Positions 4,325 through 26,618 of a stretch of DNA of 32,000 bases are shown here, piece by piece. The DNA comes from Candidatus Electrothrix yaqonensis (lineage in GTDB: Bacteria > Desulfobacterota > Desulfobulbia > Desulfobulbales > Desulfobulbaceae). The notes beneath the pieces were generated by a model that made no database searches, had not been told where the DNA came from, and saw only the letters and a program-made list of their open reading frames with translations. A program made the translations under genes and the position numbers. Every line of letters starts with the position of its first letter. Positions within the stretch are counted from its first letter, which is position 1. Location of the stretch: assembly GCA_047651235.1 (NCBI GenBank), contig CP178758.1:2640001-2672000 (forward strand), in the 5' to 3' direction.

Positions 4325-4332
4325 TGTATTCC

Positions 4333-6243
4333 TTATTTGAGCAGAGAAGCGTTGGTTGTAATGGTCGAACGGGCCTGCAGGGCCGCGATCCATGCAGAGA
4401 CCAGCTCGTTGCGGGCTGCTGCTGCCAGATTTTTTTCAGCCTGATCGCGCTCTGCAGTATCGGTAGTATCGGCTTCCGTTCCTGTCCGTCGTTCCGCGAC
4501 TTCGTACACATAATAAAGCTGGCCGATCTGCACAGATTTTTCCGGCAGTTTTTCTTTCCAGGCCAGGGCAAAGCCGCTCTGCAGGAGTTCTCCCGGAGGG
4601 GCGTCCTTCTCTGCAGGAGAGCGCGGAAGAAAATCTGTGGTGATTATTTGTTCCGCATCCGCATCATCGGAACCGGAGGGTTCCTGCAGAGCGCCCTGTT
4701 CCCGGCTTGCGGCCAGCAAGGCATCAGCTGCCTGCGAAGCCAGTTCTTCAGCTTTCACCTTTGTGTAATCAGTCACTACCTGTTCGCGCACCGCATCAAG
4801 CTCCGGCAGAGCCGGTTCCTGGATATCATCGACAAAAATGACCGCATAGCCGTCACGCATTTCCACGATGGAGGAAAGCTCGCCTTTTTTCAGCTGAAAG
4901 GCGGTCTCAAGAAACTTAGGGTCATCGACCATGCCTTCGGGCGGATTTTTTCGGGAGAAGTACTCGGAAGTACTGATCGTATCCTTGCCTTGCTGACTGT
5001 ATTTCTCCAGACTGCCTGCCCGCATAATGCCTTCATAGGCACTTGTGGCCCGTTTGAAGGTCAGGTTCTTTGCCTGCTGTTTTTTCAGCGTACCGGCCAG
5101 ATTATCCCTGACCTGCTCAAAGCTGCGGACAGATGCCGGAAGGATTTCTTCGAGTTTGATAATATGATAGCCGAACTGCGTTTCCACCACATCGCTGACC
5201 TCTCCGGACTGCATGGCAAAAACCTTCTTATCAAAAGCAGGCACCATCTGACCGGCAGGGAAGAACCCCAGATCTCCGCCCCGGTCCTTTGTCGGTCCCT
5301 CGGAATATTCCGTGGCCAAGGCGGCAAAATCGCTGTTCTCCTGACGGGCCTGCTGCAGGACTTGCTCTGCCTTTTTCTTCTGTTCCGCCCGAATTTCTCC
5401 GCTGTCCGTTTCGCTGACTTTCAGCAGAATATGACGGGCATGGCGGCGTTCCGGCTGGCGGTAGTTCTCCTTGCGGCTTTCGTACAGGGCTTTAACCTCC
5501 TCTTCGGCAGGCTCCACCTGCTCCAGATCATCCTCGGTTCTGAAGACCAGGTATTTCAGCCGCACCTTGGGGTCTGAACGGTACTGCTCTTTGTGCTGTT
5601 CAAACCAGGCCGCAAGTTCTTCCTCCTTCACCTCTACTTTGTCGGTAAAGTCAGCAGGATCAAACTGGACATAGGCGAGTTTGATCTCCTGTCCGTTATA
5701 GGCAAGCCATTGATCAACAGCACTGTCCGGCACCAGGGTAAAACCGGCCACACCGCCTGTCACCCGCCCGGCCCGGAGATCAGACTTGATGCCTTCTTCA
5801 AAACCGGAGGGGGTCATTCTGTTCTGACCGAGTATGGAGGTATAGCGCTCCTGATCGAATTTTCCGTTTTCCAGAAACACGTCCATTTTTTTTATCTTTT
5901 CCTGCACCATGCGGTCGCTGACCCTGATCCCCATTTCTTCACCGCCCTGACGGATCAGTTCCGCCCGGATCAGCTGCGACAGCACCTGCTGCCGAATTCC
6001 TAACTGTTCCAAGAGACCCGGAGGCATCTGCCCGCCAAACCGGCGCCGGAAGTTTTCTACGGTCCGGTCATATTCCTGCCCGTAAGCCTGATAGGATATG
6101 TTCTCCCCGTTCACTGTGGCGACGGCTGTACGGCTGCTGTTGCCCCCACCGCCAAATCCCCAGAAAATAAAGACTATGGCGATGACGACCACCATTGCCT
6201 GGATAAGAGGGGATTGCGCCTGTTTGCGTAATATGTTCAGCAT
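4333..6243 (-). CDS. ppiD: PpiD-like periplasmic chaperone / parvulin-type peptidyl-prolyl isomerase
   Basis: It has an N-terminal membrane anchor (MLNILRKQAQSPLIQAMVVVIAIVFIFWGFGGG) and a SurA_N-like region. The parvulin domain reads ARHILLKV...GGDLGFFPAGQMVPAFDKKVF...FGYHIIKLEE. The upstream extension of the ORF to 6675 looks non-coding, so the start is set at the ATG at 6243. Confidence 0.8.
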   Translation of the reverse strand: MLNILRKQAQSPLIQAMVVVIAIVFIFWGFGGGGNSSRTAVATVNGENISYQAYGQEYDRTVENFRRRFGGQMPPGLLEQLGIRQQVLSQLIRAELIRQGGEEMGIRVSDRMVQEKIKKMDVFLENGKFDQERYTSILGQNRMTPSGFEEGIKSDLRAGRVTGGVAGFTLVPDSAVDQWLAYNGQEIKLAYVQFDPADFTDKVEVKEEELAAWFEQHKEQYRSDPKVRLKYLVFRTEDDLEQVEPAEEEVKALYESRKENYRQPERRHARHILLKVSETDSGEIRAEQKKKAEQVLQQARQENSDFAALATEYSEGPTKDRGGDLGFFPAGQMVPAFDKKVFAMQSGEVSDVVETQFGYHIIKLEEILPASVRSFEQVRDNLAGTLKKQQAKNLTFKRATSAYEGIMRAGSLEKYSQQGKDTISTSEYFSRKNPPEGMVDDPKFLETAFQLKKGELSSIVEMRDGYAVIFVDDIQEPALPELDAVREQVVTDYTKVKAEELASQAADALLAASREQGALQEPSGSDDADAEQIITTDFLPRSPAEKDAPPGELLQSGFALAWKEKLPEKSVQIGQLYYVYEVAERRTGTEADTTDTAERDQAEKNLAAAARNELVSAWIAALQARSTITTNASLLK

Positions 6244-7035: not shown

Positions 7036-7773
7036 CTACTGCAGAACCGGACGGGCATTGATCGGCTGAACCGGTCGGTTGTTGGGATGTCCTAATGCCT
7101 CAGCCAGCTGTTTGACCTGTGCCTCCGAAACCGTGACAGGGTTCTTCATGACCAGCCAGAGCACGCCTTCCGTGCAGGGCGGGGTGGTCAGGGAGCCGTT
7201 GAAGCGGTAGTACTCCTTATTTTTCGGCAGAAGACGCTCGGCCCGGGCCTGCGAGACCATGCCGGATTTTTTTCCGGCCTTGGCAGGCATCTGCTGCCAG
7301 ATTTTTTTCAGCTCGGCATTTTCTTCCCCCAAAGTGTACATGACCGCGATGACGGCAAGATGGCCGTCGGTATCAGCATGGATAAAATGCGCCTCCATGG
7401 GAAACTGCTTCCCATCAATCAGGTTTTCACTGGGGGTATGAAAATGGAACTGCTTGAGCATAAAGGTCTTCCCGGCTGCGGTCATGGTGGACCCGGCAGT
7501 ATAGTTTGCCTGAATCGCATGACCGTTATGCACCACCTCGGTTGCCAAGCCGGTGTAGTTGAAGGTGATCGGTTCCAGTTCCGCCTCGATAAAACCAGTC
7601 AGGTTGATCGGGGCCTGATTGACCCCTTGAGCGCAGAGCTCAAAAGCCGGATACAGCTCACCCCAGTGTTCCGGCGCTCCTGCACCGGTGTATCCCCATT
7701 TTCCTGCTGAGGCTGCAGCACTTCCGGCTGCTAGAAGCAGGGCAGCTGCAACAGCCGATATTATTCTCTTCAT
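7036..7773 (-). CDS. Alpha-class carbonic anhydrase, secreted
   Basis: Signal peptide MKRIISAVAAALLLAAGSAAASA. The alpha-CA zinc-ligand context is present: QFHFHTPSEN and EAHFIHAD. The C-terminal NNRPVQPINARPV is also typical. Confidence 0.88.
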   Translation of the reverse strand: MKRIISAVAAALLLAAGSAAASAGKWGYTGAGAPEHWGELYPAFELCAQGVNQAPINLTGFIEAELEPITFNYTGLATEVVHNGHAIQANYTAGSTMTAAGKTFMLKQFHFHTPSENLIDGKQFPMEAHFIHADTDGHLAVIAVMYTLGEENAELKKIWQQMPAKAGKKSGMVSQARAERLLPKNKEYYRFNGSLTTPPCTEGVLWLVMKNPVTVSEAQVKQLAEALGHPNNRPVQPINARPVLQ

Positions 7774-7841: not shown

Positions 7842-8846
7842 TTACAGCGGCTTGTTTGCCTCCATGTGCAGGGCAAGATCAAGCATCCGGTTGGAGTAAC
7901 CCCATTCATTATCGTACCAGGACATAATCTTGACCGTGGTGCCCAGCACGCGGGTACAGAGGCCGTCCACTATAGAGGAATGGGGATCGCCCTGAAAATC
8001 AATCGAGACCAGCGGTTCCTCGCAGTAGCGCAGAACACGGCCGTCCGCTTCCTGCAGCGCCTTGTTGACCTCGGTCACCGAGGTTTCCCGTTCCACTTCC
8101 ATTACCACATCCACCAGCGAGACATCAGGCGTGGGCACCCGGACAGCCAGCCCGTCGAATTTGTTTTTCAGTTCCGGAATCACCAAGGCCACGGCCGAGG
8201 CCGCACCGGTATTGGTGGGGATCATGGACATAGCTGCGGCCCGTGCCCGGCGCAGGTCGGAATGGGGAAAGTCCAGGAGCCGCTGATCGCCGGTATAGGC
8301 ATGCACTGTAGTCATCAGGCCGCGTCTGATACCAAAGTTATTCAGAATCACCTGGGCCACCGGAGCCAGGCAGTTGGTGGTACAGGAGGCATTGGAAACC
8401 ACATGATGTTCAGTGGGATCATATTCCTCCTCATTTACCCCCATGACAATGGTCTTGACCCCGCCCTTGGCCGGAGCAGAAATAATGACCTTAGAGGCAC
8501 CTGCATCAATATGGGCACCGGCGGATTCATGATCTCTGAAAAAACCTGTGCACTCGAGCACGTATTCCGCGCCTCCGGCTTTCCAGGGGATATCAGCCGG
8601 TTTTCTGTGATTGGTTACCGGGATTTCGCGCTCGTTGACCACGATACCGTTGTCAGAGCTGGTTATATCGGCTTTGCACACTCCCATCACCGAGTCATAT
8701 TTCAACAGATGGGCAATGGTTTTAATATCCGTAAGGTCATTAATGCCCACAACCTCGATATCTGCAAACTTTTCATCTTCACTGAGCGCCCGAAAAATAT
8801 TCCGTCCTATCCGCCCGAATCCGTTGATGCCGATCTTGATGCTCAT
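7842..8846 (-). CDS. gap: Type I glyceraldehyde-3-phosphate dehydrogenase
   Basis: INGFGRIGRN NAD-binding motif, catalytic SNASCTTNCLAP, and the WYDNEWGYS C-terminal motif. Confidence 0.95.
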   Translation of the reverse strand: MSIKIGINGFGRIGRNIFRALSEDEKFADIEVVGINDLTDIKTIAHLLKYDSVMGVCKADITSSDNGIVVNEREIPVTNHRKPADIPWKAGGAEYVLECTGFFRDHESAGAHIDAGASKVIISAPAKGGVKTIVMGVNEEEYDPTEHHVVSNASCTTNCLAPVAQVILNNFGIRRGLMTTVHAYTGDQRLLDFPHSDLRRARAAAMSMIPTNTGAASAVALVIPELKNKFDGLAVRVPTPDVSLVDVVMEVERETSVTEVNKALQEADGRVLRYCEEPLVSIDFQGDPHSSIVDGLCTRVLGTTVKIMSWYDNEWGYSNRMLDLALHMEANKPL

Positions 8847-12953: not shown

Positions 12954-13649
12954 TTAAAAACCATAAGAAACCATAGCAAGAAGCCCCAGCTGACTTGTCT
13001 CTTTGTAGCGCACTGCGGTTTCACCTGACGGGAGAGGTCTGTTTTCCTCAATGCCGTCACCCAGAATTCTGACTGAAGGGTCCACGACAACGCCAAGTCC
13101 AATATTGAAGCTGTCCGTGCTTTGATTAGTTCTTCTGAAACCAAGCATTACTCCGGCACCGATATATTCAATAATCTCATTGGATCCGTTTTGGATACCG
13201 ACGAACGGTCCGATACCAAAATTGCCCCGTTCATGATCAAGATATCGGACAACTCTTTTAATGCGAATTAGGAGTTGAATTATCCGGTCTCAGCAAAAAA
13301 CAGATAGTTACAGAAAATCCGTTCCGATTTTGCAGAATCTGGCAGTTTTATCCTTTTGATTTTGCGTCATAGATTTTAACCCCTAATTCGCATTTTTACC
13401 AAATACCTTTTTGGGATCTGGAGTAAAGAAATAATGAGTTTCCAGCATGATTCTCGGAACATCGTTGTTTTCTTTTGTCACCCGGACAACACCATTAACG
13501 ACATCCGCACTTTCAACTCGATCATTATCACCGTGATACCATTGAAACCGCAAGCGTCTATTACGCGAGAGTCGTGCAGGAACCGCTTGCATGGCCCGGC
13601 ATGGCCTGGACAAGTCCGATCTGGATTGACGTGCAGGGATGAGCAGCAT
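12954..13649 (-). pseudogene. Outer-membrane beta-barrel protein gene remnant, split by a small insertion and lacking an N-terminus
   Basis: The C-terminal sequence ...GLLAMVSYGF ends in the aromatic residue typical of OMP barrels. An alternating pattern is visible (FGIGPFVGIQ, FNIGLGVVV). The two ORF pieces (13383-13649 and 12954-13259) are in the same frame. They are separated by an element that carries stop codons. No signal peptide is present, and an in-frame stop lies at 13653-13655. Confidence 0.55.
13260..13394. mobile_element. MITE-like 135-bp insert with 13-bp terminal inverted repeats and a TTT target duplication
   Basis: AATGCGAATTAGG (13260-13272) is the exact reverse complement of CCTAATTCGCATT (13382-13394). 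TTT flanks both sides (13257-13259 and 13395-13397). Conceptual excision rejoins ...KKVFGK|RVVRYLDHERG... in frame. Confidence 0.5.
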
Positions 13650-13781
13650 ATTTTAAGAAATTCAGCATTATATAACTGAACTTGAAGTGCGGAAAGAAAA
13701 GACTCATTTTTATTCCGATGGATACAGCATAAGGAGGAATCATGCCCTTGGAAATCCTGAGTTTTGCCAAACCTGCATGGA

Positions 13782-14336
13782 TCAAACCGCTCTGGAAGCA
13801 GCCTGATTCTTGCTGCTGCTCTCATGCAATCTCTGGCAAACTACTCCTGTCTCACTAGGTGCCTTCTCTACAGCTTCCTGTTCACGTGTTCGTTCACTCC
13901 CAAACAGGTAACCAGCTATGCCACCCAAAACGCCTGTTGCGGCTGTCATTGCTTCTGTGCTAGCTGCTGAGGTAACGACAAATAAAGTAGCCTGAACAAC
14001 AAGAATAAGCCCTATAAGATTTACAGCTTTTCCTGTCGAGTGACTTGGTATTTTATACAGAAAATGAAGTGCAATAAACATGATAATCGGGGTAACTATA
14101 AAAATACCTATCATGAGTTGTATCCGATAGGATACTGCGGATTGAGCAGCTTTCTGTACTTCTTTTTTCTTATCTGCCAATTTTGCTGCTTCGCGAGCTC
14201 CGTCCTCAGCATCAGTCAGCAGAGCATCAACAGTCGCACTCTCGCCCGTCGCCTCACCTGCAGATAGCTGTCCAACAAACGAGAACAAATATAAAGAGAA
14301 AACAGCAAGACATAATAACATAAGCGTTCTTTTCAT
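13782..14336 (-). CDS. Hypothetical membrane protein (signal peptide plus about 3 TM helices)
   Basis: MKRTLMLLCLAVFSLYLFSFVGQLSA, followed by hydrophobic helices (IQLMIGIFIVTPIIMFIALHFLY, LIGLILVVQATLFVV, GVLGGIAGYLFG). The ATG at 14336 overlaps the upstream stop (ATGA coupling). The region is AT-richer than the backbone. Confidence 0.6.
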   Translation of the reverse strand: MKRTLMLLCLAVFSLYLFSFVGQLSAGEATGESATVDALLTDAEDGAREAAKLADKKKEVQKAAQSAVSYRIQLMIGIFIVTPIIMFIALHFLYKIPSHSTGKAVNLIGLILVVQATLFVVTSAASTEAMTAATGVLGGIAGYLFGSERTREQEAVEKAPSETGVVCQRLHESSSKNQAASRAV

Positions 14337-14653
14337 TGCACCTCTCCCTTGCACTTATTATCAAACTTTTTATTTGCGATATCAATCAGTCTCTTGTAGA
14401 AGCCAGATTTGTCTTGGTCACTCTCGGCTACAATTTTTTCCTTAAAGGCAGCCTCAGCCGCTTTTAATACTTTACAGCTCATCCCATCCATCTTGGCTCC
14501 AATCTTCTCGACCTTTTTCTCTATCTCTTCTGCGAGCTCTGCAGAATTCTCCTGATTGGAGCTCGCCCCAAAGTCTATAAGAGGTGCACTGTATGAGCTG
14601 TTTGCAGAACAAACAATCAGCGACATAAGAAACAGCAAGGTTAAACACTTCAT
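14333..14653 (-). CDS. Hypothetical small secreted helical protein
   Basis: Signal peptide MKCLTLLFLMSLIVCSANS, then a charged helical body. It is translationally coupled to the downstream membrane protein. Confidence 0.6.
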   Translation of the reverse strand: MKCLTLLFLMSLIVCSANSSYSAPLIDFGASSNQENSAELAEEIEKKVEKIGAKMDGMSCKVLKAAEAAFKEKIVAESDQDKSGFYKRLIDIANKKFDNKCKGEVQ

Positions 14654-15103
14654 ATCTATCCTCCTTTTTATCTTTTTTTAAAGAAAATGATATCCGACAA
14701 CCTGAGCACAACAAAATCAAAGTCTTCCTTTGTGCATCATCGGATATTCTCTGTTTATAACGGATTCTGTTGATACCCAGATTTTCCATTCATAGGCAGA
14801 TACGAGCAATTTGCCTTCCCTTTTCTTTCTTCACAATTTTTGCTGTATACTCTGCAACGGTAAGAAAGAAATCAACAGGCACTTTCCTGTCAGAGCTTGT
14901 TATTTTCTGCCTGTTTAAAATAAATAGTATCACACGTTGTGTGTACAAAGCAAATAAAAAATATTATCACTTGATAAAAAATAATCAATATCATGAAAAG
15001 ATTTGGATAAAAATCAGACAAAGTTCGGTACAATAGCTGAACTTCACGATGAGTAAATTTTCCCTGCTGATGAAATAACAAATTTGAGATACTGTATTCT
15101 GTT

Positions 15104-16256
15104 GTGCATTTCTTCCTTATTGTCAGTATTGTCCTGCTCTTCATGCATTTCTATCTCTGGCTGCGGCTGGTCAGAGACCCACAGTTCAGTCCCGGCGTAA
15201 AAAAAATCGGCACGTGGACAGTTGTTCTGCTGTATTTTTCTTTTCCTGTGTCCGGGTTCCTCGTACGACAGCTGCCGTTCCGCTCTTCCTTCCCAATCTC
15301 CTGGCTGGTGTATCTCTGGCTTGGCAGCCTGACTCTATTTTTCTTTCTTTTTCTGTTCACAGACTGCCTGAAAATTCTCTATCATACAATCCGCTGCCTT
15401 CTGCCTGGCACTCGAAGCCTCCCTGATCCGGAGCGGAGACGCTTTCTGGCCCGTACCTTTGCCGCCTCTGCTTCGGTTCTGGTTTTTGGAACTTCAGCTT
15501 TCGGGGTCAAACAATGTTATACTTCTGCCCGGGTCAACCGTTTCAGGATCAGGCTGAGGGAGCTGCCTCATGTGTTCAGGGGCTTTACGATTGTGCAGAT
15601 TTCCGATATTCATATCGGTGAAATGCTGCGGGCAGGTGATCTTGCGGAGATTGTCGGCCAAGTGAACCGGCTGCGGCCGGATCTTATTGCCATCACCGGC
15701 GATCTGGTTGACGGCGATGTGACCCTGCTCCGTGACGAAATTGCTCCTCTGCGGGAACTCAGAACAAAACAGGGCATCTTTTTTGTGACCGGCAATCATG
15801 AATACTACAGCGGCGTGGACCAGTGGCTGCCGGAGATCGAAAAAATGGGCATCACGGTACCGAAATACCAGGGTGGAAATCCGCAGAGGAGGAGCGTCGT
15901 TTATCCTGGCCGGAGTCAACGATCACTCTGCCGGGCGGTTCGGCCGCAGACACGCACCGGATTACGCCCGGGCCTTGCAGGGCATTGAACAGGGCAAAAA
16001 GATTATCCTGCTGGCGCATCAGCCTGTTGCCGTGAGGAAAGCTGCCACCTACGGAGTGGATCTCCAGCTTTCAGGCCATATGCACGGGGGGCAGATATGG
16101 CCCTTCAGTTATCTGGTCTATCTGCAGCAGCCCTTTTGCAAGGGATTCTACCGGCATGGGGAGACCTTGGTGTACGTCAACCAGGGAACAGGCTGCTGGG
16201 GACCGCCCATGCGGGTGGGAACCTATAACGAAATTACCGAATTCGTGCTGAGCTGA
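15104..16256 (+). pseudogene. Membrane-anchored metallophosphoesterase (YkuE/YaeI-like) with a +1 frame break near 15857-15861
   Basis: N-terminal TM helices are followed by motifs ISDIHIG, GDLVDG and GNHE in frame 1. The motifs LAGVNDH, GHMHGGQ and NQGTGCWGPPMR continue in the next frame (ORF 15798-16256). The junction reads ...EKMGITV / RNTRVEIRRGGASF. Confidence 0.8.
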
Positions 16257-16304
16257 ATTCAGAACGAATTTTTCAGACGAATTTTTACGAAAATACAGGA
16301 GATC

Positions 16305-16730
16305 ATGAAACACCCAATGCAACAGCCTTCTTTATCTGATATCTTCACCTGCACCCGCTGCGGCCACTGCTGTCAGGGGGAAACCACGGTCTCTCTTGAT
16401 CAGGAGGATCAGGAACGGATGATTGCCGAGCTGGGCCTGTCCCGGCAGGAGGTCAAAGCCAGATACTGGCGGGTTACCGGCAAAGTGGTGCAGATGAAAA
16501 TCGTTGATCATCACTGCATTTTTTACACCAAAGACACCGGCTGCACAGTGCATGAAGGCCGCCCCTGGCGGTGCGGGCAATGGCCCCTGCATCCGAGTAT
16601 TCTGGCGGATGAAAACAACTTCCGCATTATCCGGGATTCCTGTCCCGGTATCAACCGGGAATTGAGCTATGAAGCATTCTGTGCCATTTTCAGGCAGCTT
16701 CTGGAGCAAGAAAAACAGCTTGTCTGCTGA
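16305..16730 (+). CDS. YkgJ-family cysteine-cluster protein (UPF0153)
   Basis: CTRCGHCC (a CxxCxxCC motif), plus downstream HHCIF...GCTVHEGRPWRCGQWP. Confidence 0.8.
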   Translation: MKHPMQQPSLSDIFTCTRCGHCCQGETTVSLDQEDQERMIAELGLSRQEVKARYWRVTGKVVQMKIVDHHCIFYTKDTGCTVHEGRPWRCGQWPLHPSILADENNFRIIRDSCPGINRELSYEAFCAIFRQLLEQEKQLVC

Positions 16731-16962
16731 ACAGGCAACCAATTGGCAGTAAACTGATGGAGTTAAGCTGTTAATTTTATATCCCCTTGATCTTGTTCAA
16801 CTGATGGGTTATATCTTGTACAAGCAGACTTGTTGCAATAAATATAATTCTCTTTTTTCAGCTACATAACGCCTGCAAAAGATTGAATCCGTTTCCCGTC
16901 AAACAAAGTCTCTCATGTCCTCTAAGGATCTCCCCATTAAATAACCTAAAGGATTATTTCAC

Positions 16963-18804
16963 ATGATTACAGCCATCCTCACCCTCATCGTCGGGCTTTG
17001 CCTTATTGTCGCAGTGCCAAGTTATCTCTCGCAAAAAGGTCCATCACTGAAAGGACTTGCAAGCATAGCAAGAGGTGCGGGCGCACTGATTATGCTCTTC
17101 GGGGTTGCAAGCATCTCCTTTGTCCATATTTCACAGAATCAAACCGGTCTCCTGCATAGAATTTATCTGGCTGATCCGCTTCCTGAAGGACGTATCATCG
17201 CAATGAAGGGAGAAAAGGGGCCGCAGAGCTGGGTCCTGGGCCCAGGGTTTCACTTTATCCCTTTCCTCAACGTCTTATACGATGTTTCAGAGGGCGATGT
17301 GGTGGAAGTGCCTCAGGGAAAAATAGCAATCCTCCATGCCCGCGACGGTGCCTCCCTGCGTTCCGGCCAGCGTTTTGCCGATCCTTTTACCGCCTTGATG
17401 GAAAAAGGAACCGATAAACCTGTTGACCAGGGAACGATGCTCACCGATGCGGCCTATTTCATCCGGAACGGCGGGCAGCGCGGACAGCAGACCACAGTAC
17501 TAAAACCGGGTGCCTATCGTATGAACCTCTTTCTCTGGAAATACAGACTGACCACAGCGACCGATATTCCGCAGGGATTTGTCGGCGTGGTGAAATCAAA
17601 CATGCATGCACCGGTTCGTTTTGCAGGCAGTCATTTTTCCGACGGCCCAAAACCGGAGGACTGTAATCCTTTAAAGCTTGACCGACCAGAGGATTCTTTA
17701 AAGACACCTCTGGTCCCGGTGGGCTGCATAGGTATTTGGGAAAAAACCTTGGTGCCCGGGAACTATTTTGTCAACCCAGAGGTCTACGTTGTTACTCTGG
17801 TCGATACCCGAGCCCAAGCATGGCTGTACAAGGGCGGGTATAAGCACCGGGTCATTGATGTAAAACTGAATGCCGACGGACAATTCGATCAAAGTGAACG
17901 CTCGTATGAGGTGGCGGTTCCCGAGGGGGCTGCCGACGAAGCCATTGCCATGAAGGCCGAAGGCTGGCGTATGCGTCAGGCAGCACGGGCCGTTGTTCGT
18001 ATCGCTCCGACTGACGCCTCCTTTGTGGTCGCTTCCGTGGGCGGACTTACCGAGGCCGAGGACAGGATCATTACCCCGGCAATCCAAGCATGGCTCACCA
18101 CGCTGGCCGGCGGTTCCATTCAAGTCCCCAGTGACGACGGAGCAACGAGTGATCGACCTACACGTGTCCTTGATTTTATGGAACATCGTGACCTCATCAG
18201 TGACCAGCTGGAACAGGTGCTCAAGAGAGAAGGGGCTAAAGCTGGCGTAACGGTCAAAGAAGTCCGCCTGCTGGAGCCCTATTTCCCGCCTGAACTCCTG
18301 CTCCCCCGTAAGCGTCAGCAGCTCGCTAATGCGCTGGTTAAATCCTTCATAGACGAACGCAAGGCACAGCGTGAACGCATTGAAACCGAACGTGAACGAG
18401 CCACGGCAAACGAGCAGTCCCACTTGGTCAAAGCGCAGATTGAGAAGCAACGGAAGCAACAGCTTGCTGATGCGGCAATCGAAGAGGGCCGAGGTGTGAA
18501 GGGAAATATGCTCCTGACTGCGGAAGGTCAGCTGGCCCAGGCGGAAGTGCTCGGGCAGGATCGGGTTATGCAGCTCCAGATGCTGGATCGTCTCCTCGGC
18601 TATTTTGATCGCCACCCTGAGGTGCTGACGGCAATGGCAACCCAGGCCCATAAGTTTGTCCCGCAGGTCCAGGTAACTTCCGGTGAAGGAGGAGGATTGA
18701 ACCTCACCAGTGCGGCTGCGGTGCTAGGTGGGATTCTGGGGCAGGATGATTCGCCCAAACCTGCAGCGACAAAAAGAAAAGAGGAACCTGTGGCTAGCCG
18801 GTAG
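16963..18804 (+). CDS. SPFH/band-7 (flotillin-like) membrane protein
   Basis: Two N-terminal TM helices and an SPFH-like core ([30 protein letters not shown]). A long charged coiled-coil tail ([36 protein letters not shown]) resembles flotillin/YqiK. Confidence 0.65.
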
Positions 18805-18852
18805 GCCTGCCGGAATAAAACGAAAACAGACTGCTCGTTTATCCAAACGCTC

Positions 18853-19140
18853 TGCCACCCGATAACCCGCCCTGACCATCTTGCTCAGGTAGCCGGAAAC
18901 CGCATGATAGGGCACCCCGCACATGGGCACCTGGTTTTCATCGCCCTTGTTGCGGGAGGTCAGGGTGATACCCAGCACCCGCGAGGCGGTCTCGGCATCC
19001 TCAAAGAACATCTCGTAAAAGTCGCCCATCCTATAAAAGAGGATGGTGCCGGGGTGCTGCTCCTTGATCTCCAGGTACTGGCGGAGCATGGGGGTCATCT
19101 TGGGGGTGCCGGATGCGGCTGTGTTGATCTTGGCGGACAC
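18853..19140 (-). pseudogene. mutS: mutS 5' fragment (mismatch-binding domain I only, about 96 codons)
   Basis: [48 protein letters not shown]...[26 protein letters not shown] is the canonical MutS N-terminus. After GYRVA the expected ICEQ motif is missing. The frame then runs through unrelated sequence to a stop at 18724. Confidence 0.85.
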
Positions 19141-19255
19141 GATACTGGGACTCTTCGGTTGTAATTAACTGGGTGAAACAGGACTGAACGATTTGATCCG
19201 AAAGAGTAGAGGGCGGCTTTGCTTTTGTCAAGAAGATGAAGCTCACCGGTGCGTT

Positions 19256-21496
19256 TCATCTTTTCTGACTGTGCTTCTGCTTCTGCCGTTCCTGCAGCTT
19301 TTCAAAGAAGCCCTTGAGGTTGAGCTTGATGCCGACAACAGGGATAGTCCATTCCGGTTCAACAAGCTCGGTGAGCAGCTCCACCCATGTTGTCGTATCC
19401 TGCGGACTGGCTTTCTCTGCCACTCTTTCCAGTTCTGCCTTATCCTTCGGCTGTACCAGGCCAAGCAGCTCACACACGCTGTAACGCTTCTTTGAACCCT
19501 CGGCAATATAGAGGTCACTGCCCGCTTCTGCGTATTCCAGCAGGGTTTGGTAATCAGCACTGACATGCGGGTCATCCGGCATGGGCACCCGTTCACTGAC
19601 GGTAAGCTTCTCAAAGCTGGAGTTGATGTCGGTGAGCAGGTAGCGGAGATAATGCAGATACTCCCTTGGGGTATCGCCCTGCACCCAAAGATTGATGCGC
19701 CGAGCCTCCACATCCGCCTTGACCAGGGCCTGTGACCCGCTGCGCTTGTCCGCCAGCAGCACCCCGGTACGCCAGCGGGTCTCATCATGAATATCCTTAT
19801 GCACCTTGACCATGAAGCGGGGAAAGACGGATGGCGGCAGGAAGTCGGGATAATGGAGGGCGAAACGAAGGGCGCCGTCCTTGCTGAAGCTGATGTCCGG
19901 CTCCGGTACCGGCAGAAGCTGCGGGATGAGCACAGCATCCCTGCCAAGGTCATAGCACAGCTCGAAATTCTGCATCAGGCGCATAATATAAGCGTGCGTC
20001 TCCTGCGGGCAGCAGAGTTTGTCCCCGCAACGCTGCGGCAGGAGTTTGCCTACGTCCTTCAGGGCCAGGAAGCCCTTGCTGTCCGCCATCTGCTCGGAAG
20101 TGATGATCGTATAGACCGCATTGGTGACCCAGACCGGGTTGAGCACGCTCATGGCATCAAGAATGAAGTCCCGGAAATGGACGGCCACGCCCAGATCATG
20201 GAGGAAGTCCGCCAGTATCTCCCGGCTCTCCTCGCCAGTGATGCCTGCCTCGGCACAATAGCCCGTGTATTCCTCCTGGCTGATGTAGGGCTTGTCCATC
20301 TCCTCCAGCTTGCCCTTGACCGCAAACCAGCTTGTCGGCCAGATGATACTGAGCATGTTGATCTTAGCCAGCTCGGCCAGCAGGGCCTCTTTGAACTCCG
20401 GCACCCCCTTGCCGCTCTTGCAGGAGAGAGGAAAGAAGCCGCAGATGCCGGGATACTTTTCCCGCAGGAAGGGTCGGTTGACATCAAAGGAGGGGTTGCT
20501 GTCTATCTTGTTGAGCACCACCAGCACCGGCGAGTCCCCGCCAAAGGTCTCCACATGCCGCAGCCAGTATTCCGTGCTCTCATCCTTGCGACTGTCAAGC
20601 ACCAGGACATAGAGGCTCCGCTTGGAGAGGAAGAACTGATGGGTGGCGTGCTGGATCTCCTGGCCGCCAAAGTCCCAGACATTGGCCCTGATCTGCTTGC
20701 CCGCGCATTCCGGCTCCCAGCCCTGAATGCTGATGCCGTGGGTGGTGTCCTCGTGCTCGTCAAAAGGGTGACCACGCAGCTGCTTGACCAGGGAGGTCTT
20801 GCCTGCGGCCCCGTCACCGATAAGGAGAATCTTCACCTCGTTCAGTGCCTGCTGACCTTTCTCCAGTTCAGCGAAATACTCCTGCATCACCTCTATCCCC
20901 TTTACGGCAATCTCCAGCGGCGGGCAGAGGAGCGGGTTGTCGCCGAGGAGAAGCATTCTCAGCTTGGTGAGCTGGCAGATCTCCGGCGGCAGGGTGGTAA
21001 GCTGGTTGGCGCCGAGGAAAAGCGTCGTTAGATTGGTAAGCTGGAACAGCTCCGGCGGCAGGGCGGTGAGCCGGTTGCTGTCGAGGGAAAGCCCCATCAG
21101 ATTCGTGAGCTGGCAGATCTCTGACGGCAGGCTGCTCAACTGGTTGAATCTGAGGTTAAGCCGCGTTAGCTTGGTGAGCTGTCCAATTTCCTGCGGCAGG
21201 CTGCTCAACTGGTTGAGGCTGAGGTCAAGCCTCGTCAGATTCGTGAGCTGGTAGATTTCCTGCGGCAGGGCAGTAAGTTGGTTGAAGCTAAGGTCAAGCT
21301 CCGTCAGCTTGGTGAGCTGTCCGATTTCCGGCGGTAGGCTGGTGAGCTGGTTGCCGATGAGGTCAAGTACCCTCAGGTTCGTGAGCTGGCCGATTTCCGG
21401 CGGCACGGTAGTAAGTTCTCTTCCTCTCAGGTCAAGCTCCGTTGCCCCGCTGGCCTTGGCCTTCTCTATCTCCTGCAACACTTCTTCATTCATCAT
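19256..21496 (-). CDS. Bacterial ROCO protein: LRR - Roc GTPase - COR
   Basis: About eight tandem 23-aa LRRs (LTxLPxEIxQLTxLxxLxLxxNQ). Roc G-motifs are present: GDGAAGKT (G1), WDFGGQE (G3) and LNKID (G4). A COR-like region follows (NPVWVTNAVY...LIPQLLP...RFMV) and then a roughly 110-aa tail. The ORF is open to 21535. The ATG at 21496 has AGGAGG 7 nt upstream. Confidence 0.88.
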   Translation of the reverse strand: MMNEEVLQEIEKAKASGATELDLRGRELTTVPPEIGQLTNLRVLDLIGNQLTSLPPEIGQLTKLTELDLSFNQLTALPQEIYQLTNLTRLDLSLNQLSSLPQEIGQLTKLTRLNLRFNQLSSLPSEICQLTNLMGLSLDSNRLTALPPELFQLTNLTTLFLGANQLTTLPPEICQLTKLRMLLLGDNPLLCPPLEIAVKGIEVMQEYFAELEKGQQALNEVKILLIGDGAAGKTSLVKQLRGHPFDEHEDTTHGISIQGWEPECAGKQIRANVWDFGGQEIQHATHQFFLSKRSLYVLVLDSRKDESTEYWLRHVETFGGDSPVLVVLNKIDSNPSFDVNRPFLREKYPGICGFFPLSCKSGKGVPEFKEALLAELAKINMLSIIWPTSWFAVKGKLEEMDKPYISQEEYTGYCAEAGITGEESREILADFLHDLGVAVHFRDFILDAMSVLNPVWVTNAVYTIITSEQMADSKGFLALKDVGKLLPQRCGDKLCCPQETHAYIMRLMQNFELCYDLGRDAVLIPQLLPVPEPDISFSKDGALRFALHYPDFLPPSVFPRFMVKVHKDIHDETRWRTGVLLADKRSGSQALVKADVEARRINLWVQGDTPREYLHYLRYLLTDINSSFEKLTVSERVPMPDDPHVSADYQTLLEYAEAGSDLYIAEGSKKRYSVCELLGLVQPKDKAELERVAEKASPQDTTTWVELLTELVEPEWTIPVVGIKLNLKGFFEKLQERQKQKHSQKR
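20921..21439 (-). repeat. 69-bp periodic coding repeats (LRR modules of the ROCO gene)
   Basis: GGTGAGCTGnCnGATTTCCGGCGGCAGG-type units recur every 69 bp at the DNA level. They match the 23-aa LRR period. Confidence 0.85.
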
Positions 21497-21535
21497 CGCC
21501 TGCCCTCCTGTGGTGTTGGTTAAGTTATCCGGCAT

Positions 21536-21665
21536 TCGGAGTCATACTGTTGGTAAGGAGCGAGTCATACTGCTGACTCGGTCGGAGTCATACTGTTGGT
21601 AAGGAGCGAGTCATACTGTTGACTCGGCCGGAGTCATATTGTTGGTAAGGAGCGAGTCACAGCAC
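21536..21665. repeat. About 2.7 copies of a 46-bp tandem repeat (two 23-bp half-units) carrying 20-bp perfect palindromes, upstream of the ROCO gene
   Basis: Units lie at 21536-21581, 21582-21627 and 21628-~21665. GAGTCA recurs at 21539, 21562, 21585, 21608, 21631 and 21654, a 23-bp phase. The palindromes are CGAGTCATACTGCTGACTCG (21561-21580) and CGAGTCATACTGTTGACTCG (21607-21626). Confidence 0.9.
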
Positions 21666-21737
21666 GCTCATGACAACATCCGTCCATGCTGCTCATACTA
21701 AGGAGCTGCATCGGCTTTGTCAAGGAAATGGATAGGT

Positions 21738-21806
21738 TGATCATCTTCAAAGAACATCTCGTCAAAGTCACCCATCCGGCAGAAAAGAATGTTCGCATCC
21801 GCAACG
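21738..21806 (-). pseudogene. Second, diverged relic of the mutS 5' region (about 21 codons)
   Basis: The minus strand reads VADANILFCRMGDFDEMFFEDD, versus [22 protein letters not shown] in the 18853-19140 fragment. A 31-nt core (21747-21777 vs 19001-19031) differs at only 2 positions. The relic lies directly after the polA stop. Confidence 0.6.
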
Positions 21807-21819
21807 TTACTGAACGAGT

Positions 21820-24534
21820 TCACTCCCCCTTATCCAGACTCGGCCCTGCCTCGGTATTGACCTTGAGCGGCACATCCAGCTCCATGACCGACTCCATCGT
21901 CTCCTTCACCATAGCAGCAACAGAATCAAGCTCATCTTCCGGTACTTCCAGGACCAGTTCATCGTGAATCTGCAGGAGCAGACGGGCCTGGGCCTGCTGA
22001 GTACGTAGCTCCTCATGCACCTTGAGCATAGCCAGCTTGATGATGTCCGAGGCCGTGCCCTGGATGGGCGTGTTGATGGCCATGCGCTCGGCAAACTGGC
22101 GGCGGTTATGGTTGGAGGCATTGATCTCCGGCAGCTGTCTGCGGCGGCCCAGCAGGGTGGTGACATACCCGTTTGTGCGGGCCTGTTCCATGATGCTGTC
22201 CATGAACTGCTGAATCTCCGGATAATGGGCAAAGTAGCGATCAATAAAGGTCTGGGCCTCCTTGCGGCTGATGCCGAGCTGCCGGGACAGGCCAAAGGCG
22301 GACATGCCGTAGACAATGCCGAAGTTGATGCTCTTGGCCACCCGGCGCATCTCCCCGGTGATCATGGGCAGGGCCACCTGAAAGATCTCTGCGGCTGTCT
22401 GCGTATGGATATCCTGATCACTTCGGAAGGCCTCCATCAGGGCAGCATCCTGGCTGTAATGGGCCAGAACCCGGAGATCGATCTGGGAGTAGTCCGCAGA
22501 AAGCAGCAGCCATCCTTGCCGGGAAATAAAGGCTGACCGGATGCGGCGGCCTTCTTCGCTGCGGATAGGGATGTTCTGCAGATTCGGGTTGCTGGAGCTG
22601 AGTCTGCCTGTGGCTGTACCCCACTGGTTGAACGAGGAATGCACCCGACCGGTAATCGGGCTGATATGCCCCTGCAGCTTGTCCACATAGGTGGATTTCA
22701 GCTTGGCCAAGTTGCGGAACCGGACAATCAGGGCAGGCAGCTCATGCTTATGGGACAGAGCCTCCAGCACCTTGACATCCGTGGAATAGCCGGTCTTGGT
22801 CTTGCGGCCTTTGGGAAGCCCGATTTCGTCAAACAGGACTTCGGCCAGCTGCTGCGAAGAGTTGATATTGAACGAATGCCCGGCAACAGTGTAGATTTCC
22901 TGCTCAAGCACCTCCAGCCGTTTGGCAAATTCCGTGGCCAACTCCTGCAGGACCTCCCGGTCCACCAGAATGCCGCTGTTCTCCATTGCCGCCAGGACCG
23001 GGATCAGCGTTCCTTCCACCTCGGCAAAGAGCTGCCACAGACTCTGCTCTTCCAGAGCAGGCTGTTGTTCCTGGAAAAGGCGCAGGCTGCCGTAGACATC
23101 TTCGCAGCTGTAATTCGCTGCCTGCTCAGGATCAACCCGGCAGAAGGCATCCGGTGTTTTGTCATCGCCTACCACCTCGGCAAAGGAGGTCAGTTTCAGG
23201 TCGATTTTCTGACACAGGTCATCCAGCTTATAGGAGCGGCGACCGGGATCAAGCAGCCAGGCCCCGATCATGGTGTCGTACAGCGGCCCGACCAGCCGGA
23301 TGCCGCCGTTCTGCGGAGCTGCCAGCACAGCATAGTCGTACTTGAGATTATGGCCGATCTTGGCAACCGCAGGATCAGTGAGCAGCGGACCGAGCAGATC
23401 GATAATATCCTGCAGGGAAAGCTGATCCGGCAGAAGTTCGCCCTGTTCATCCCTATGACCACAGGCCAGATACCATGCCTGCTCTGTATCGGTGCAGAGC
23501 GAGATACCAACCAGCTCCGCTGCCAGCGGGTCCAGGGAGGTGGTCTCCGTATCCACGACCAGATGCTCTGCCCCGTGCAGCTGCCGGACCAGCTGCTCCA
23601 GTTCTTCCCGCTGCCGGACCAGGACAAAGCCGTCCGTGCTGACCTTGGCAGCCGGGACATCGGCCTTGAGCAGGGTGAAAAACTCCAGCTCGGTGAGCAA
23701 GGCGCGCAGGGCCTCCGGGTCGGGTTCGGTAACTTGGTAGGCGCTCAGCTCTGTCTCAACCTCGGCCTGATCCTGCAGGCGCACCAAGTCACGGGAAAGA
23801 AAAGCATCATCCCTATGGGCAATGAGCCGCTCCTTCATCTTGGATTTCTTCAGGCCCTCGACCTGTTCATACAGCCCTTCCAGCGTCCTGTGCTCCTTGA
23901 GCAGCTTCTGCGCCGTCTTCGGCCCCACCCCCGGCACCCCGCTGATATTATCTGAGGAGTCGCCGACCAGGGCAAAATAATCCAGCAAACGTTCCGGGCC
24001 GAGTCCGTATTTTTCCTTCACCGCAGCTGTGTCCATGAGCCGGTCGTTCATGGGATCCCACAGGATAATGTCTTCAGAAACCAGCTGGAGCAGATCTTTG
24101 TCCCCGGAGACTACCACCACCTTACAGCCCTGTTCGACCAGCAGTCGGGCCGCTGAGGCGATCAGGTCATCAGCCTCCACGTCAGCAGCCGACATGCTCA
24201 GTAGGTTGTAGGCCGCAACTATCTGGTGGATATACGGAATCTGGGCAATGAGATCCTCAGGCATGGGCGGGCGGTTGGCCTTGTAGTCGGCTGCAATCTG
24301 ATGACGGAATACCGGCCCCTTGGTATCAAAGGCCACAGCAAGATATTCCGGCTGCTTTTCCCGCAGGATGCGGCGCAGAATAGTGGTAAAACCGTACACG
24401 GCATGGGTGGGCAGCCCGGCGCTGTTGCTCAGAGGGCGGATAGCATGATAGGCCCGATAAATATAGGCGCTGCCATCGATCAGGTAGACTTCTTTCTTTT
24501 GGGGCACTGGGAACAGCTCAGTCTGCTGGCTCAT
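21820..24534 (-). CDS. polA: DNA polymerase I
   Basis: The 5'-nuclease N-terminus reads YLIDGSAYIYRAYHA. Polymerase motifs are present: LLSADYSQIDLRVLAH (A), RRVAKSINFGIVYGMS (B) and LQIHDELVLEV (C). Confidence 0.96.
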   Translation of the reverse strand: MSQQTELFPVPQKKEVYLIDGSAYIYRAYHAIRPLSNSAGLPTHAVYGFTTILRRILREKQPEYLAVAFDTKGPVFRHQIAADYKANRPPMPEDLIAQIPYIHQIVAAYNLLSMSAADVEADDLIASAARLLVEQGCKVVVVSGDKDLLQLVSEDIILWDPMNDRLMDTAAVKEKYGLGPERLLDYFALVGDSSDNISGVPGVGPKTAQKLLKEHRTLEGLYEQVEGLKKSKMKERLIAHRDDAFLSRDLVRLQDQAEVETELSAYQVTEPDPEALRALLTELEFFTLLKADVPAAKVSTDGFVLVRQREELEQLVRQLHGAEHLVVDTETTSLDPLAAELVGISLCTDTEQAWYLACGHRDEQGELLPDQLSLQDIIDLLGPLLTDPAVAKIGHNLKYDYAVLAAPQNGGIRLVGPLYDTMIGAWLLDPGRRSYKLDDLCQKIDLKLTSFAEVVGDDKTPDAFCRVDPEQAANYSCEDVYGSLRLFQEQQPALEEQSLWQLFAEVEGTLIPVLAAMENSGILVDREVLQELATEFAKRLEVLEQEIYTVAGHSFNINSSQQLAEVLFDEIGLPKGRKTKTGYSTDVKVLEALSHKHELPALIVRFRNLAKLKSTYVDKLQGHISPITGRVHSSFNQWGTATGRLSSSNPNLQNIPIRSEEGRRIRSAFISRQGWLLLSADYSQIDLRVLAHYSQDAALMEAFRSDQDIHTQTAAEIFQVALPMITGEMRRVAKSINFGIVYGMSAFGLSRQLGISRKEAQTFIDRYFAHYPEIQQFMDSIMEQARTNGYVTTLLGRRRQLPEINASNHNRRQFAERMAINTPIQGTASDIIKLAMLKVHEELRTQQAQARLLLQIHDELVLEVPEDELDSVAAMVKETMESVMELDVPLKVNTEAGPSLDKGE

Positions 24535-25739: not shown

Positions 25740-26618
25740 TTGCAGGAGGTCTATTATGGGATAACATTACCGGTAAGTACTGTCCGAAATATCACGGAGA
25801 CTCACGCCCGACACATACATGAAAGACGTCGACAGGAGAGAATTGAAGAATATCCGTCTATAAAGGGACGGGACTTCGTTATTGCCGAGACGGACGGCAG
25901 CATGGTTCCGATTGTCCTGACGGATACAGATGCCAGGGACCGGCGCAAAGGTAAAAAGCACAGCTGGAAAGAAGCACGTCTGAGTATAGCTCATGTTCTC
26001 GGTGAAAGGACGCTTAAATTCGGCGTTGAATTTCAGGAAAACGTTGACGAGTCGGGAAAGGTTCTCTTTGATTGCGCCTGCCGTGCGGGATTCGGTCGGG
26101 GTACATATCTGCACTCAGTGGGTGACGGAGCAACGTGGATTTCCGGGCAGGTGAAAAAACAGTTCGGTTCACAGGGGCGTTACCTTGTCGATTTTTATCA
26201 TGTTTGTGAATACCTGGAGGCTGCTGCACCGGCATGTTCCGGGAAAGACGGAAAAGGATCATGGGGTAAGCAGCAGAAAGAGCGCCTGAAAAAGGGACAG
26301 GAAAAAAAACTGATCGAAGCATTGAAGCCTCATCTTGAGCCGGAAAAGACAGAAGATCAAAATGCACCTGTCCGCTGCTGCCTGCGTTACCTGAGCAACC
26401 GTCCGGGGCAGTTCGACTATCCCGATGCTCAACAGCTTGGTTTACCTATCGGTTCTGGAGAAATAGAAAGTGCGCACCGGTATGTCATCCAGGAACGTCT
26501 GAAAATAGCCGGCGCATGGTGGACACCGGAAAATGCCCGAATCATGCTTTCCCTGAGAGTTGACCGTGCGGACGGATACTGGGATAAATATTGGGAGAAT
26601 ATAAGCTGGGCAGCGTAA
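25740..26618 (+). CDS. ISKra4-family (UPF0236-like) transposase, N-terminally truncated, likely a pseudogene
   Basis: The C-terminal motif is LPIGSGEIESAHRYVIQERLKIAGAWWTPENARIMLSLRVDRADGYWDKYW. The same frame continues upstream to 25587 but contains in-frame stops at 25650-25652 and 25584-25586. The expected N-terminal ~150 aa are missing. Confidence 0.75.
   Translation: MQEVYYGITLPVSTVRNITETHARHIHERRRQERIEEYPSIKGRDFVIAETDGSMVPIVLTDTDARDRRKGKKHSWKEARLSIAHVLGERTLKFGVEFQENVDESGKVLFDCACRAGFGRGTYLHSVGDGATWISGQVKKQFGSQGRYLVDFYHVCEYLEAAAPACSGKDGKGSWGKQQKERLKKGQEKKLIEALKPHLEPEKTEDQNAPVRCCLRYLSNRPGQFDYPDAQQLGLPIGSGEIESAHRYVIQERLKIAGAWWTPENARIMLSLRVDRADGYWDKYWENISWAA

Follow-up and report, generated by a model that had tools for sequence, protein, structure and literature searches.

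In the 3.74-Mb chromosome of Candidatus Electrothrix sp. YB6, a cable bacterium, a gene for a ROCO protein (leucine-rich repeats, LRR, joined to a Roc GTPase and a COR domain) lies between polA and an SPFH gene with a piece of mutS on either side. We analysed this block within a stretch of 32,000 nucleotides (nt) of contig CP178758.1 (positions 2,640,001 to 2,672,000), hereafter the window and numbered from its first letter, in which the block takes up ~2.96 kb from 18854 to about 21800 between the convergent polA and SPFH genes. Our preferred explanation, which we hold to be fairly probable, is that the block represents a displaced and partly duplicated ROCO-mutS junction together with a second, older or foreign scrap of mutS. 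By comparison with related genomes it is an ancestral Electrothrix junction, ROCO followed by mutS, that now stands apart from the working mutS. The block does not represent a novel type of system but a scar that rearrangement left at a variable hotspot of the genome. A previous sequence-only reading of this DNA had recognised a complete LRR-Roc-COR gene between polA and the SPFH gene, flanked by two different copies of the same part of mutS domain I, and had reasoned that a simple insertion into mutS could not produce such an arrangement; the Pfam domains and alignments described below bear this out.

The mutS' fragment and the resident mutS

The larger mutS piece, mutS', lies on the SPFH side. 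Its open reading frame (ORF; 18724-19140, minus strand) matches Pfam MutS_I over positions 1-81 of 113 (E 3.6e-33) and the NCBIfam MutS equivalog over positions 1-82 of 793. In each of the four comparisons with relatives, nucleotide homology to mutS runs out at 18854, and the 96-codon 5' piece described earlier stands. The fragment breaks off after ...GYRVA, and 42 unrelated codons follow to 18724, overlapping the 3' end of the SPFH gene. A functional MutS comprises domains I-V including the ABC ATPase, of which mutS' holds part of domain I only, and GenBank gives it no protein accession. Judged from its sequence, mutS' is a pseudogene fragment whose intact gene lies elsewhere in the chromosome.

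The full-length MutS of YB6 is XOF35411.1 (881 amino acids, aa), a member of the E. aestuarii MutS 90% cluster; a search with the 96-aa fragment returned short or partial MutS entries only, and the resident gene was not among them. Residues 15-96 of mutS' correspond to the first 82 residues of XOF35411.1 and are identical to them at 82/82 positions. Beyond ...GYRVA the resident protein continues with ICEQAEDP and the fragment with ERLDKRAV. The 17 other cable-bacterial MutS sequences are identical to the fragment at 72-80 of the 82 positions where this region is covered. Most simply, the alignments point to mutS' as a copy of the 5' end of YB6's own mutS, by a margin of 2 residues in a very conserved domain I. 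A short-read contig that enters the block from the SPFH side stops 66 nt inside mutS'. De Bruijn assemblers end a contig at sequence of which the sample holds another, near-identical copy, and the stop may hint, weakly, at such a second mutS copy.

The upstream side of mutS' was aligned to intact mutS loci of relatives. The mutS promoter lies 19 nt from the ROCO stop codon in YB6, and the window from 19237 to 18854 is contiguous, at 80% identity and through the TTGACA...TACTCT promoter, with positions 7904-8299 of GCA_052785085 (locus L086), which run from upstream of mutS into the gene. Likewise, 19183-18854 corresponds to 13214-13542 of the E. scaldis locus (L001) at 85.8%, covering 42 nt upstream of mutS and its first 96 codons. 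In these alignments the ROCO-mutS' junction of YB6 looks like the bare ancestral junction. Among the YB6 ROCO proteins with accessions, no close ortholog is adjacent to XOF35411. The sequence-only reading had proposed that mutS served as the anchor by which the block was assembled. A role for mutS survives, with ROCO found upstream of mutS in three relatives, but not as an anchor for foreign DNA: the 96-codon piece best matches the cell's own MutS and is the 5' end of an ancestral neighbour that was carried along with ROCO, promoter included.

ROCO and mutS in related genomes

In E. scaldis and in GCA_053813925 (L083) an orthologous ROCO gene immediately precedes a full-length mutS that has the same orientation (76-80% ROCO identity in aa, 85-86.5% in nt), and in L086 a 60%-identical ROCO is placed likewise, while the outer flanks of these three loci have nothing in common. 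The window from 21437 to 19248 is colinear with the E. scaldis ROCO gene (84.9% in nt), and colinearity with this locus is interrupted only by a HigBA-like pair present in E. scaldis. What is inserted between ROCO and mutS differs from one relative to the next: the HigBA-like pair in L001, a 145-aa ORF in L083, and RelB-like and PIN genes in L086. On this comparison of sequences the order ROCO then mutS is the ancestral state in at least this part of the genus.

A closer pair of genomes shows how this interval changes. E. aestuarii and E. scaldis are 98.5% identical in the flanks and 96.6% in mutS. Between flank and mutS E. aestuarii carries an ion-channel gene, a 73-aa ORF and RelB/ParE where E. 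scaldis has ROCO and the HigBA-like pair, and homology restarts at about mutS codon 9. The 73-aa called gene of E. aestuarii (L103 8902-9123, CP159373.1) is a C-terminal remnant of ROCO, 82% identical to residues 676-746 of the YB6 protein, and presence against absence of ROCO is thus seen at one and the same mutS-upstream site. The aligned genomes mark the mutS-upstream interval as a hotspot at which genes are deleted and cassettes replaced, with the mutS 5' end as its right-hand boundary.

Toxin-antitoxin (TA) modules or restriction genes occur within a few kb of ROCO orthologs at 4/8 loci (L001, L082, L086 and L105), and in L083 GmrSD lies downstream of mutS. Gene order was scrambled in all comparisons, and mobility specific to ROCO is indistinguishable from general genome fluidity. 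A metagenome scan with ROCO yielded 2 close loci only. The ROCO gene of Electrothrix sp. Rat3 (L082 9186-11632), annotated with a 543-aa product without LRR, was considered as a pseudogene and rejected as such, the frame being open from an upstream MNEEVLQ through the full LRR; the short product is a start-site call and not a truncation. In Electronema aureum (L084) the recA gene downstream of mutS (13602-15722) carries a LAGLIDADG intein and has a 706-aa product. The same locus has, 7 kb downstream of mutS, a YkgJ homolog with 77% identity to window 16305-16730; it was considered as a remnant of a former linkage of mutS with the SPFH side, for which it is too weak.

The mutS relic beside polA

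The second mutS scrap, on the polA side, is far shorter. Positions 21742-21777 (36 nt) agree with 18996-19031 at 33/36 positions, with 3 mismatches, and no match of this grade arose in 100 shuffles. A relic of 21 codons had been reported here; its presence is upheld, but the recognisable part is limited to 16-17 codons (21743-21790, ILFCRMGDFDEMFFED), equivalent to about residues 33-48 of MutS domain I. Its edges are sharp, with the polA stop codon about 30 nt away on one side and a promoter on the other; at the opposite end of the block the SPFH stop codon and the mutS' breakpoint are 49 nt apart.

The 48-nt core of the relic is identical at 39-41/48 positions to the mutS of YB6 (the fragment), E. 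scaldis, L083, L086 and Electronema aureum alike, and the relic is no nearer to YB6's own fragment than to the other mutS tested. Of its 7-9 mismatches 5-7 fall at third codon positions; the relic would therefore derive from a diverged functional mutS allele and not from neutral decay of the present YB6 copy. An old duplication junction, filler DNA copied at a rearrangement joint and a leftover of an earlier cassette capture are possible sources. The 41-aa ORF that holds the relic is annotated in GenBank as the hypothetical protein XOF32830.1 (ACL93V_12495), and shares bases (GTGA) between its GTG start and the polA stop; the call of a gene here is probably spurious.

Borders of the block

Two Logan short-read contigs of SRR31704081 correspond to window 13555-18919 (L101, the SPFH-side contig) and 25400-21589 at 100% identity. 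They cross the SPFH/mutS' and the polA/relic junctions, respectively; since both junctions are crossed by independent contigs, the arrangement is not an assembly artefact. GenBank lists YkgJ (XOF32827), SPFH (XOF32828), PolA (XOF32831) and a thioredoxin-like protein (XOF32832) as neighbours.

The block had also been described as a horizontally mobile patch, a view that its borders do not support. No ORF for an integrase, insertion sequence (IS) or transposase was found between 16.9 and 24.5 kb and no tRNA in the window, and apart from the mutS scraps the block borders have no terminal repeats. G+C content (GC) is 0.55-0.59 in the block, 0.55-0.60 in polA and 0.53-0.58 in the SPFH gene, with no shift in composition. 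Across 80 Desulfobulbales polA loci, mostly from non-cable bacteria (the cable bacteria being E. gigas and Electronema JC only), mutS, SPFH and ROCO were found within 10 kb downstream of polA in none (0/80). The region downstream of polA in E. gigas and Electronema JC is not shared with YB6, and E. gigas has the thioredoxin-polA pair only in common with it. Across these loci, then, the sequences indicate that polA and mutS are not an ancestral pair. ROCO genes near polA were also seen in other loci: that of L088 lies on the opposite side of polA from YB6's, and in L004 polA has a ROCO homolog about 7 kb upstream. In YB6 an ORF (25740-26618, plus strand) that lies some 1.2 kb past the thioredoxin-polA pair matches only the C-terminal part of UPF0236 (ISLre2-type transposase) and is probably a transposase fragment.

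The ROCO protein and its upstream region

At its maximal extent the ROCO ORF runs from 19256 to 21535 on the minus strand (759 aa). Alignment places the conserved start, common to four orthologs, at 21496 (MMNEEV..., 746 aa) with AGGAGG upstream, and the same start is used by the GenBank entry XOF32829.1 (“COR domain-containing protein”), to which ROCO is 100% identical. Pfam searches gave LRR_8/LRR_4 over about residues 17-192, Roc (E 1.6e-30), COR-A directly C-terminal of Roc (E 2.8e-36, model positions 1-143 of 143) and COR-B (E 2.4e-28, model positions 3-143 of 145), and no match to a kinase. The G1-G5 motifs GDGAAGKTS, DFGGQ, NKID and SCK are intact, and their key residues are invariant or conserved at >=90% in 27 homologs. 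In phmmer searches against PDB sequences the Chlorobium tepidum Roco (8r4b) matched ROCO residues 19-735 (E 1.2e-123) and the M. barkeri Roco2 RocCOR (4wnr) also matched (E 9e-117). An AlphaFold model built from the 27 homologs reached a mean predicted local distance difference test score (pLDDT) of 76.7, and its best Foldseek matches were 6hlu (E 5e-44), 3dpu, 4wnr (template modelling score 0.77 on target) and LRRK1/2.

The absence of a kinase or other effector had been remarked on. There is indeed no kinase match, but all prokaryotic Roco proteins identified so far are LRR-RocCOR without a kinase (PMC6337361); this being the standard prokaryotic arrangement, the missing effector is not unusual. 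With Roc, COR, LRR without a kinase and the family fold all found, ROCO is, by its domains and its predicted structure, an ordinary group-1 prokaryotic Roco. The C. tepidum protein (CtRoco) forms a dimer through COR as long as it is free of nucleotide or bound to GDP, and GTP binding turns it into a monomer (PMC5714945, PMC11052575). By homology YB6 ROCO should be a GTPase with a GTP-driven dimer-monomer cycle, and its LRR would be a partner-binding surface with no enzymatic effector attached.

The tail had been put at about 110 aa; with COR-B delimited by Pfam, 68 aa remain beyond it. They are kept throughout the cable-bacterial family in the pattern ELLGLVQP..., a variable acidic stretch and then G-I-x-L-N-L-K-G-F-F...QKQKR, and the full-length CtRoco alignment, reaching residue 735, covers part of them. 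A separate domain here was rejected: neither the last 110 nor the last 68 aa gave a Pfam match, even with E allowed up to 10, and pLDDT is <50 from residue 698. From the model we treat the tail as a flexible conserved extension. YB6 has at least three ROCO copies (XOF32829, XOF33563 and XOF35266), and ROCO is multi-copy in cable bacteria. Neither ROCO nor SPFH matched a PADLOC defence model at E up to 0.01, and no full-length ROCO homolog was found on phages. A literature search found no paper connecting cable bacteria with Roco proteins, and one combining Roco with anti-phage terms gave irrelevant matches only.

Directly upstream of ROCO lies a tandem repeat (21536-21659; Tandem Repeats Finder, TRF, 2.7 copies, 96% identity), and between it and the relic a candidate sigma-70-like promoter (21695-21723), a consensus match only, is placed to drive ROCO. 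The motif TACCARCANNNTGACTC occurs three times within the repeat. It is found solely upstream of ROCO genes, twice in E. scaldis (L001 9919-9958) and once in L088 (1385-1401) besides the three copies here, and nowhere else in the window or among 100 fetched loci. The sequence suggests that these repeats could be a putative operator array. An RNA element in the repeat region was considered and rejected, given no Rfam match and a fold z-score of -0.10.

Feature coordinates and other genes of the window

Table 1. Features of the ROCO block and its two bordering genes, from the polA side to the SPFH side (window positions).
Feature	Position	Strand	Evidence or remark
polA (DNA polymerase I, 904 aa)	21820-24534	-	Pfam DNA_pol_A E 5.6e-168 and 5'-3' and 3'-5' exonuclease domains; XOF32831.1; upstream border
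mutS relic	21743-21790	-	16 codons, inside 41-aa ORF 21698-21823 (XOF32830.1)
sigma-70-like promoter, candidate	21695-21723	-	TTGACA-17 nt-TAGTAT; 10/12 consensus positions
tandem repeat	21536-21659	.	period 23/46 nt, about 5 half-units; TRF
ROCO gene (746 aa, XOF32829.1)	19256-21496	-	Pfam LRR, Roc, COR-A, COR-B
ROCO LRR	20921-21448	-	about 8 repeats, 69-nt DNA period
ROCO Roc GTPase	20501-20833	-	Pfam
ROCO COR-A	19913-20338	-	Pfam
ROCO COR-B	19463-19873	-	Pfam
ROCO C-terminal tail	19259-19462	-	68 aa, conserved; low-confidence helical/basic
mutS promoter/leader, native	19187-19237	-	TTGACA...TACTCT; alignment to L086 and L001 mutS upstream regions
mutS' fragment	18854-19140	-	first 96 mutS codons; GTG 19140, conserved ATG 19098
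junction segment	18805-18853	.	49 nt, SPFH stop codon to mutS' breakpoint 18853/18854
SPFH/Band_7 gene (613 aa, XOF32828.1)	16963-18804	+	Pfam Band_7 E 3.4e-7; downstream border, convergent with block

Elsewhere in the window an apparent frameshift divides a metallophosphoesterase gene (15104-16256, plus strand) into ORFs at 15104-15988 and 15798-16256, which overlap. The same sequence is found in the independent short-read contig L101; the frameshift is therefore real and the gene is likely a pseudogene. Positions 13000-15000 have a GC of 0.385-0.45 against about 0.55 elsewhere and contain small ORFs with signal-peptide-like N-termini and no Pfam matches; this stretch may be foreign or fast-evolving DNA. 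A 1423-aa SNF2 helicase is encoded at 122-4393 (minus strand) and matches PADLOC DpdE (E 2e-189) as well as ZorD models, in both cases very strongly; no further dpd or zorya gene was found next to it, and the adjoining gene encodes a SurA-like peptidyl-prolyl isomerase. At 7036-7773 (minus strand) a gene for a eukaryotic-type (alpha) carbonic anhydrase adjoins gap and a glycogen-synthase-like gene.

Origin of the block

We propose that a duplicative rearrangement in YB6 parted ROCO from the functional mutS, by a route that could have been a segmental duplication followed by loss of the 3' part of one copy, or a replication-based translocation. ROCO would have retained its own upstream repeat and promoter region, the mutS promoter and mutS codons 1-96, and the block would have come to rest between the convergent polA and SPFH genes, with full-length mutS elsewhere in the chromosome. 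The relic would have come separately, as another scrap, from a mutS allele that is more diverged. It would fit the picture from the sister genomes, in which the mutS 5' end bounds a hotspot of cassette swapping where TA pairs, an ion-channel gene and ROCO are present or absent.

Several points weigh against this explanation. The identity of mutS' with the resident mutS is at the protein level only, with a resolution of 2-10 aa, and the direction of events could be either way, ROCO and mutS' having been copied here or mutS having moved away. An empty polA-SPFH site was not found among the 80 Desulfobulbales polA loci, few of them from cable bacteria. The relic is left without a mechanistic explanation, and its 48 nt are too short for phylogenetic placement. 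The ROCO orthogroup also occurs next to ilvD (Rat3, L082 and L087) and next to proS/relA (Electronema PJ, L105), as well as immediately 5' of a polA in the same orientation, with 67% identity (L088 1552-3636 and 3737-4381, metagenome contig JACCEE011278798.1); mutS is therefore not the sole context of ROCO, and the word “ancestral” is limited to part of the genus.

The block might instead be an island from another Electrothrix strain, bearing ROCO and the start of mutS, that integrated via mutS homology and left the relic as a leftover of recipient or donor. Such an import would agree with a relic that differs from all tested mutS mainly at third codon positions, as a diverged functional allele would, and with the exchange of the mutS-upstream interval between close relatives up to a boundary at about mutS codon 9. 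The ROCO orthogroup is moreover found in many contexts, often beside TA modules, and plasmids carry Roco genes in filamentous cyanobacteria and in a few bacteria besides. We nevertheless regard import as unlikely. The block is away from the mutS locus, and with mutS within 10 kb of none of the 80 polA loci there was probably no mutS target near polA. In addition, the 96-codon piece is best matched by YB6's own MutS, GC is unshifted, and integrase, IS and tRNA are absent at the borders.

A tandem duplication or Campbell-type event giving mutS'-ROCO-mutS is another possible origin, with the relic as the eroded junction and with later deletions or rearrangements that brought in polA and SPFH and moved full-length mutS. 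The mutS piece, the ROCO upstream region, ROCO and the second mutS piece follow one another in direct orientation, the hallmark of a tandem duplication or of integration by a single crossover, and the several ROCO copies in YB6 and other cable bacteria would be in line with it. At least three further events would be required, however. The relic and the fragment would also have started out identical, but the relic has diverged by about 17%, chiefly at synonymous sites, and the fragment is 100% identical to the resident protein. Gene conversion acting on the longer copy could close this gap, and we give the tandem origin little credence.

The function of ROCO is a separate question and compatible with any structural history. 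ROCO could be the NLR-like sensor of a conflict or defence module on a variable patch, its hotspot position reflecting selection for turnover. Kaur et al. 2020 (PMC7159879) name Roc-COR GTPases, as a rare type, among the NTPase cores that conflict systems of multicellular prokaryotes have. The family is enriched in multicellular or filamentous prokaryotes, and the cable bacteria are themselves multicellular. TA or restriction genes lie near ROCO at half of the eight loci, with GmrSD downstream of mutS in L083, and ROCO is polymorphic in presence between E. scaldis and E. aestuarii. Against such a sensor stand the lack of a PADLOC match, of an effector domain and of a co-transcribed partner of YB6 ROCO, the housekeeping genes that flank ROCO at every locus, and the phages on which no full-length homolog was found. 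TA modules may just mark generic insertion hotspots, and 8 loci are too few for an enrichment test. We think this role improbable for ROCO. A more far-reaching version, more doubtful still, would make the mutS 5' end and its upstream region a dedicated cassette-exchange hotspot, in which effector-less ROCO proteins under a TACCARCANNNTGACTC operator act as NLR-like conflict or kin-surveillance sensors of the multicellular filament and the mutS scraps are footprints of repeated capture. Finally, although the YB6 genome is a metagenome-assembled genome and LRR and tandem repeats are difficult for assembly, an assembly artefact or a chance resemblance of the relic is excluded, being refuted by short-read contigs that reproduce both junctions at 100% and by zero matches in 100 shuffles.

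Under our preferred explanation of a displaced ROCO-mutS junction, the mutS fragment, seemingly evidence of an exotic island, is the 5' end of an ancestral neighbour that reveals where ROCO came from, and the locus makes a clean worked example of this. Modestly new are the linkage of a ROCO orthogroup to mutS across several marine Electrothrix genomes in which other gene order is scrambled, and the mutS-upstream interval as a hotspot where cassettes with TA modules are swapped and ROCO is present or absent. The ROCO-specific repeat motif is a possible handle on a ROCO regulator and might give an initial lead on what prokaryotic Roco proteins do in the cell. Knowledge of the Roco mechanism and of mismatch repair is unchanged.

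Comparison with known systems

Among characterised proteins the closest to YB6 ROCO are CtRoco (PDB 6HLU, 3DPU, 8R4B-D) and M. barkeri Roco2 (4WNR), the best fold matches, which have the same LRR-Roc-COR-A-COR-B arrangement and are likewise kinase-free. Compared with CtRoco, the YB6 protein, which is known from its sequence, has fewer repeats in its LRR (about 8, where CtRoco has a longer array), and its C-terminal extension is also shorter, at 68 aa predicted as low-confidence helices with a basic QKQKR-type end. Like the NLR-like or STAND sensors Avs and bNACHT, ROCO has a repeat-domain sensor fused to a nucleotide switch. Unlike them its switch is a Ras-like GTPase and not a STAND ATPase, it has no effector or adaptor domain and it has no PADLOC match, so that the resemblance suggested earlier remains an analogy.

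The enterobacterial mutS-rpoS intergenic region is polymorphic, and mutS is often horizontally exchanged. The likeness to this region that had been noted from the sequence gains from the comparison of E. scaldis and E. aestuarii: as in enterobacteria, a variable gene set abuts mutS, with an exchange boundary at or in the mutS end; in the two Electrothrix genomes the cargo differs between flanks that are 96.6-98.5% identical. Unlike in enterobacteria, the variable segment of Electrothrix lies upstream of mutS, at its 5' end, carries TA cassettes and ROCO, and belongs to Desulfobulbaceae; in YB6 the cargo and the mutS 5' end have left the mutS locus. In the same way mutS' resembles an ordinary pseudogene scar, being a 5' fragment with its promoter, identical in protein to the resident gene and ending at a sharp breakpoint into unrelated sequence. 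What sets the YB6 block apart from such scars is that two scraps of the same mutS 5' segment, of different age or origin, stand on either side of one gene.

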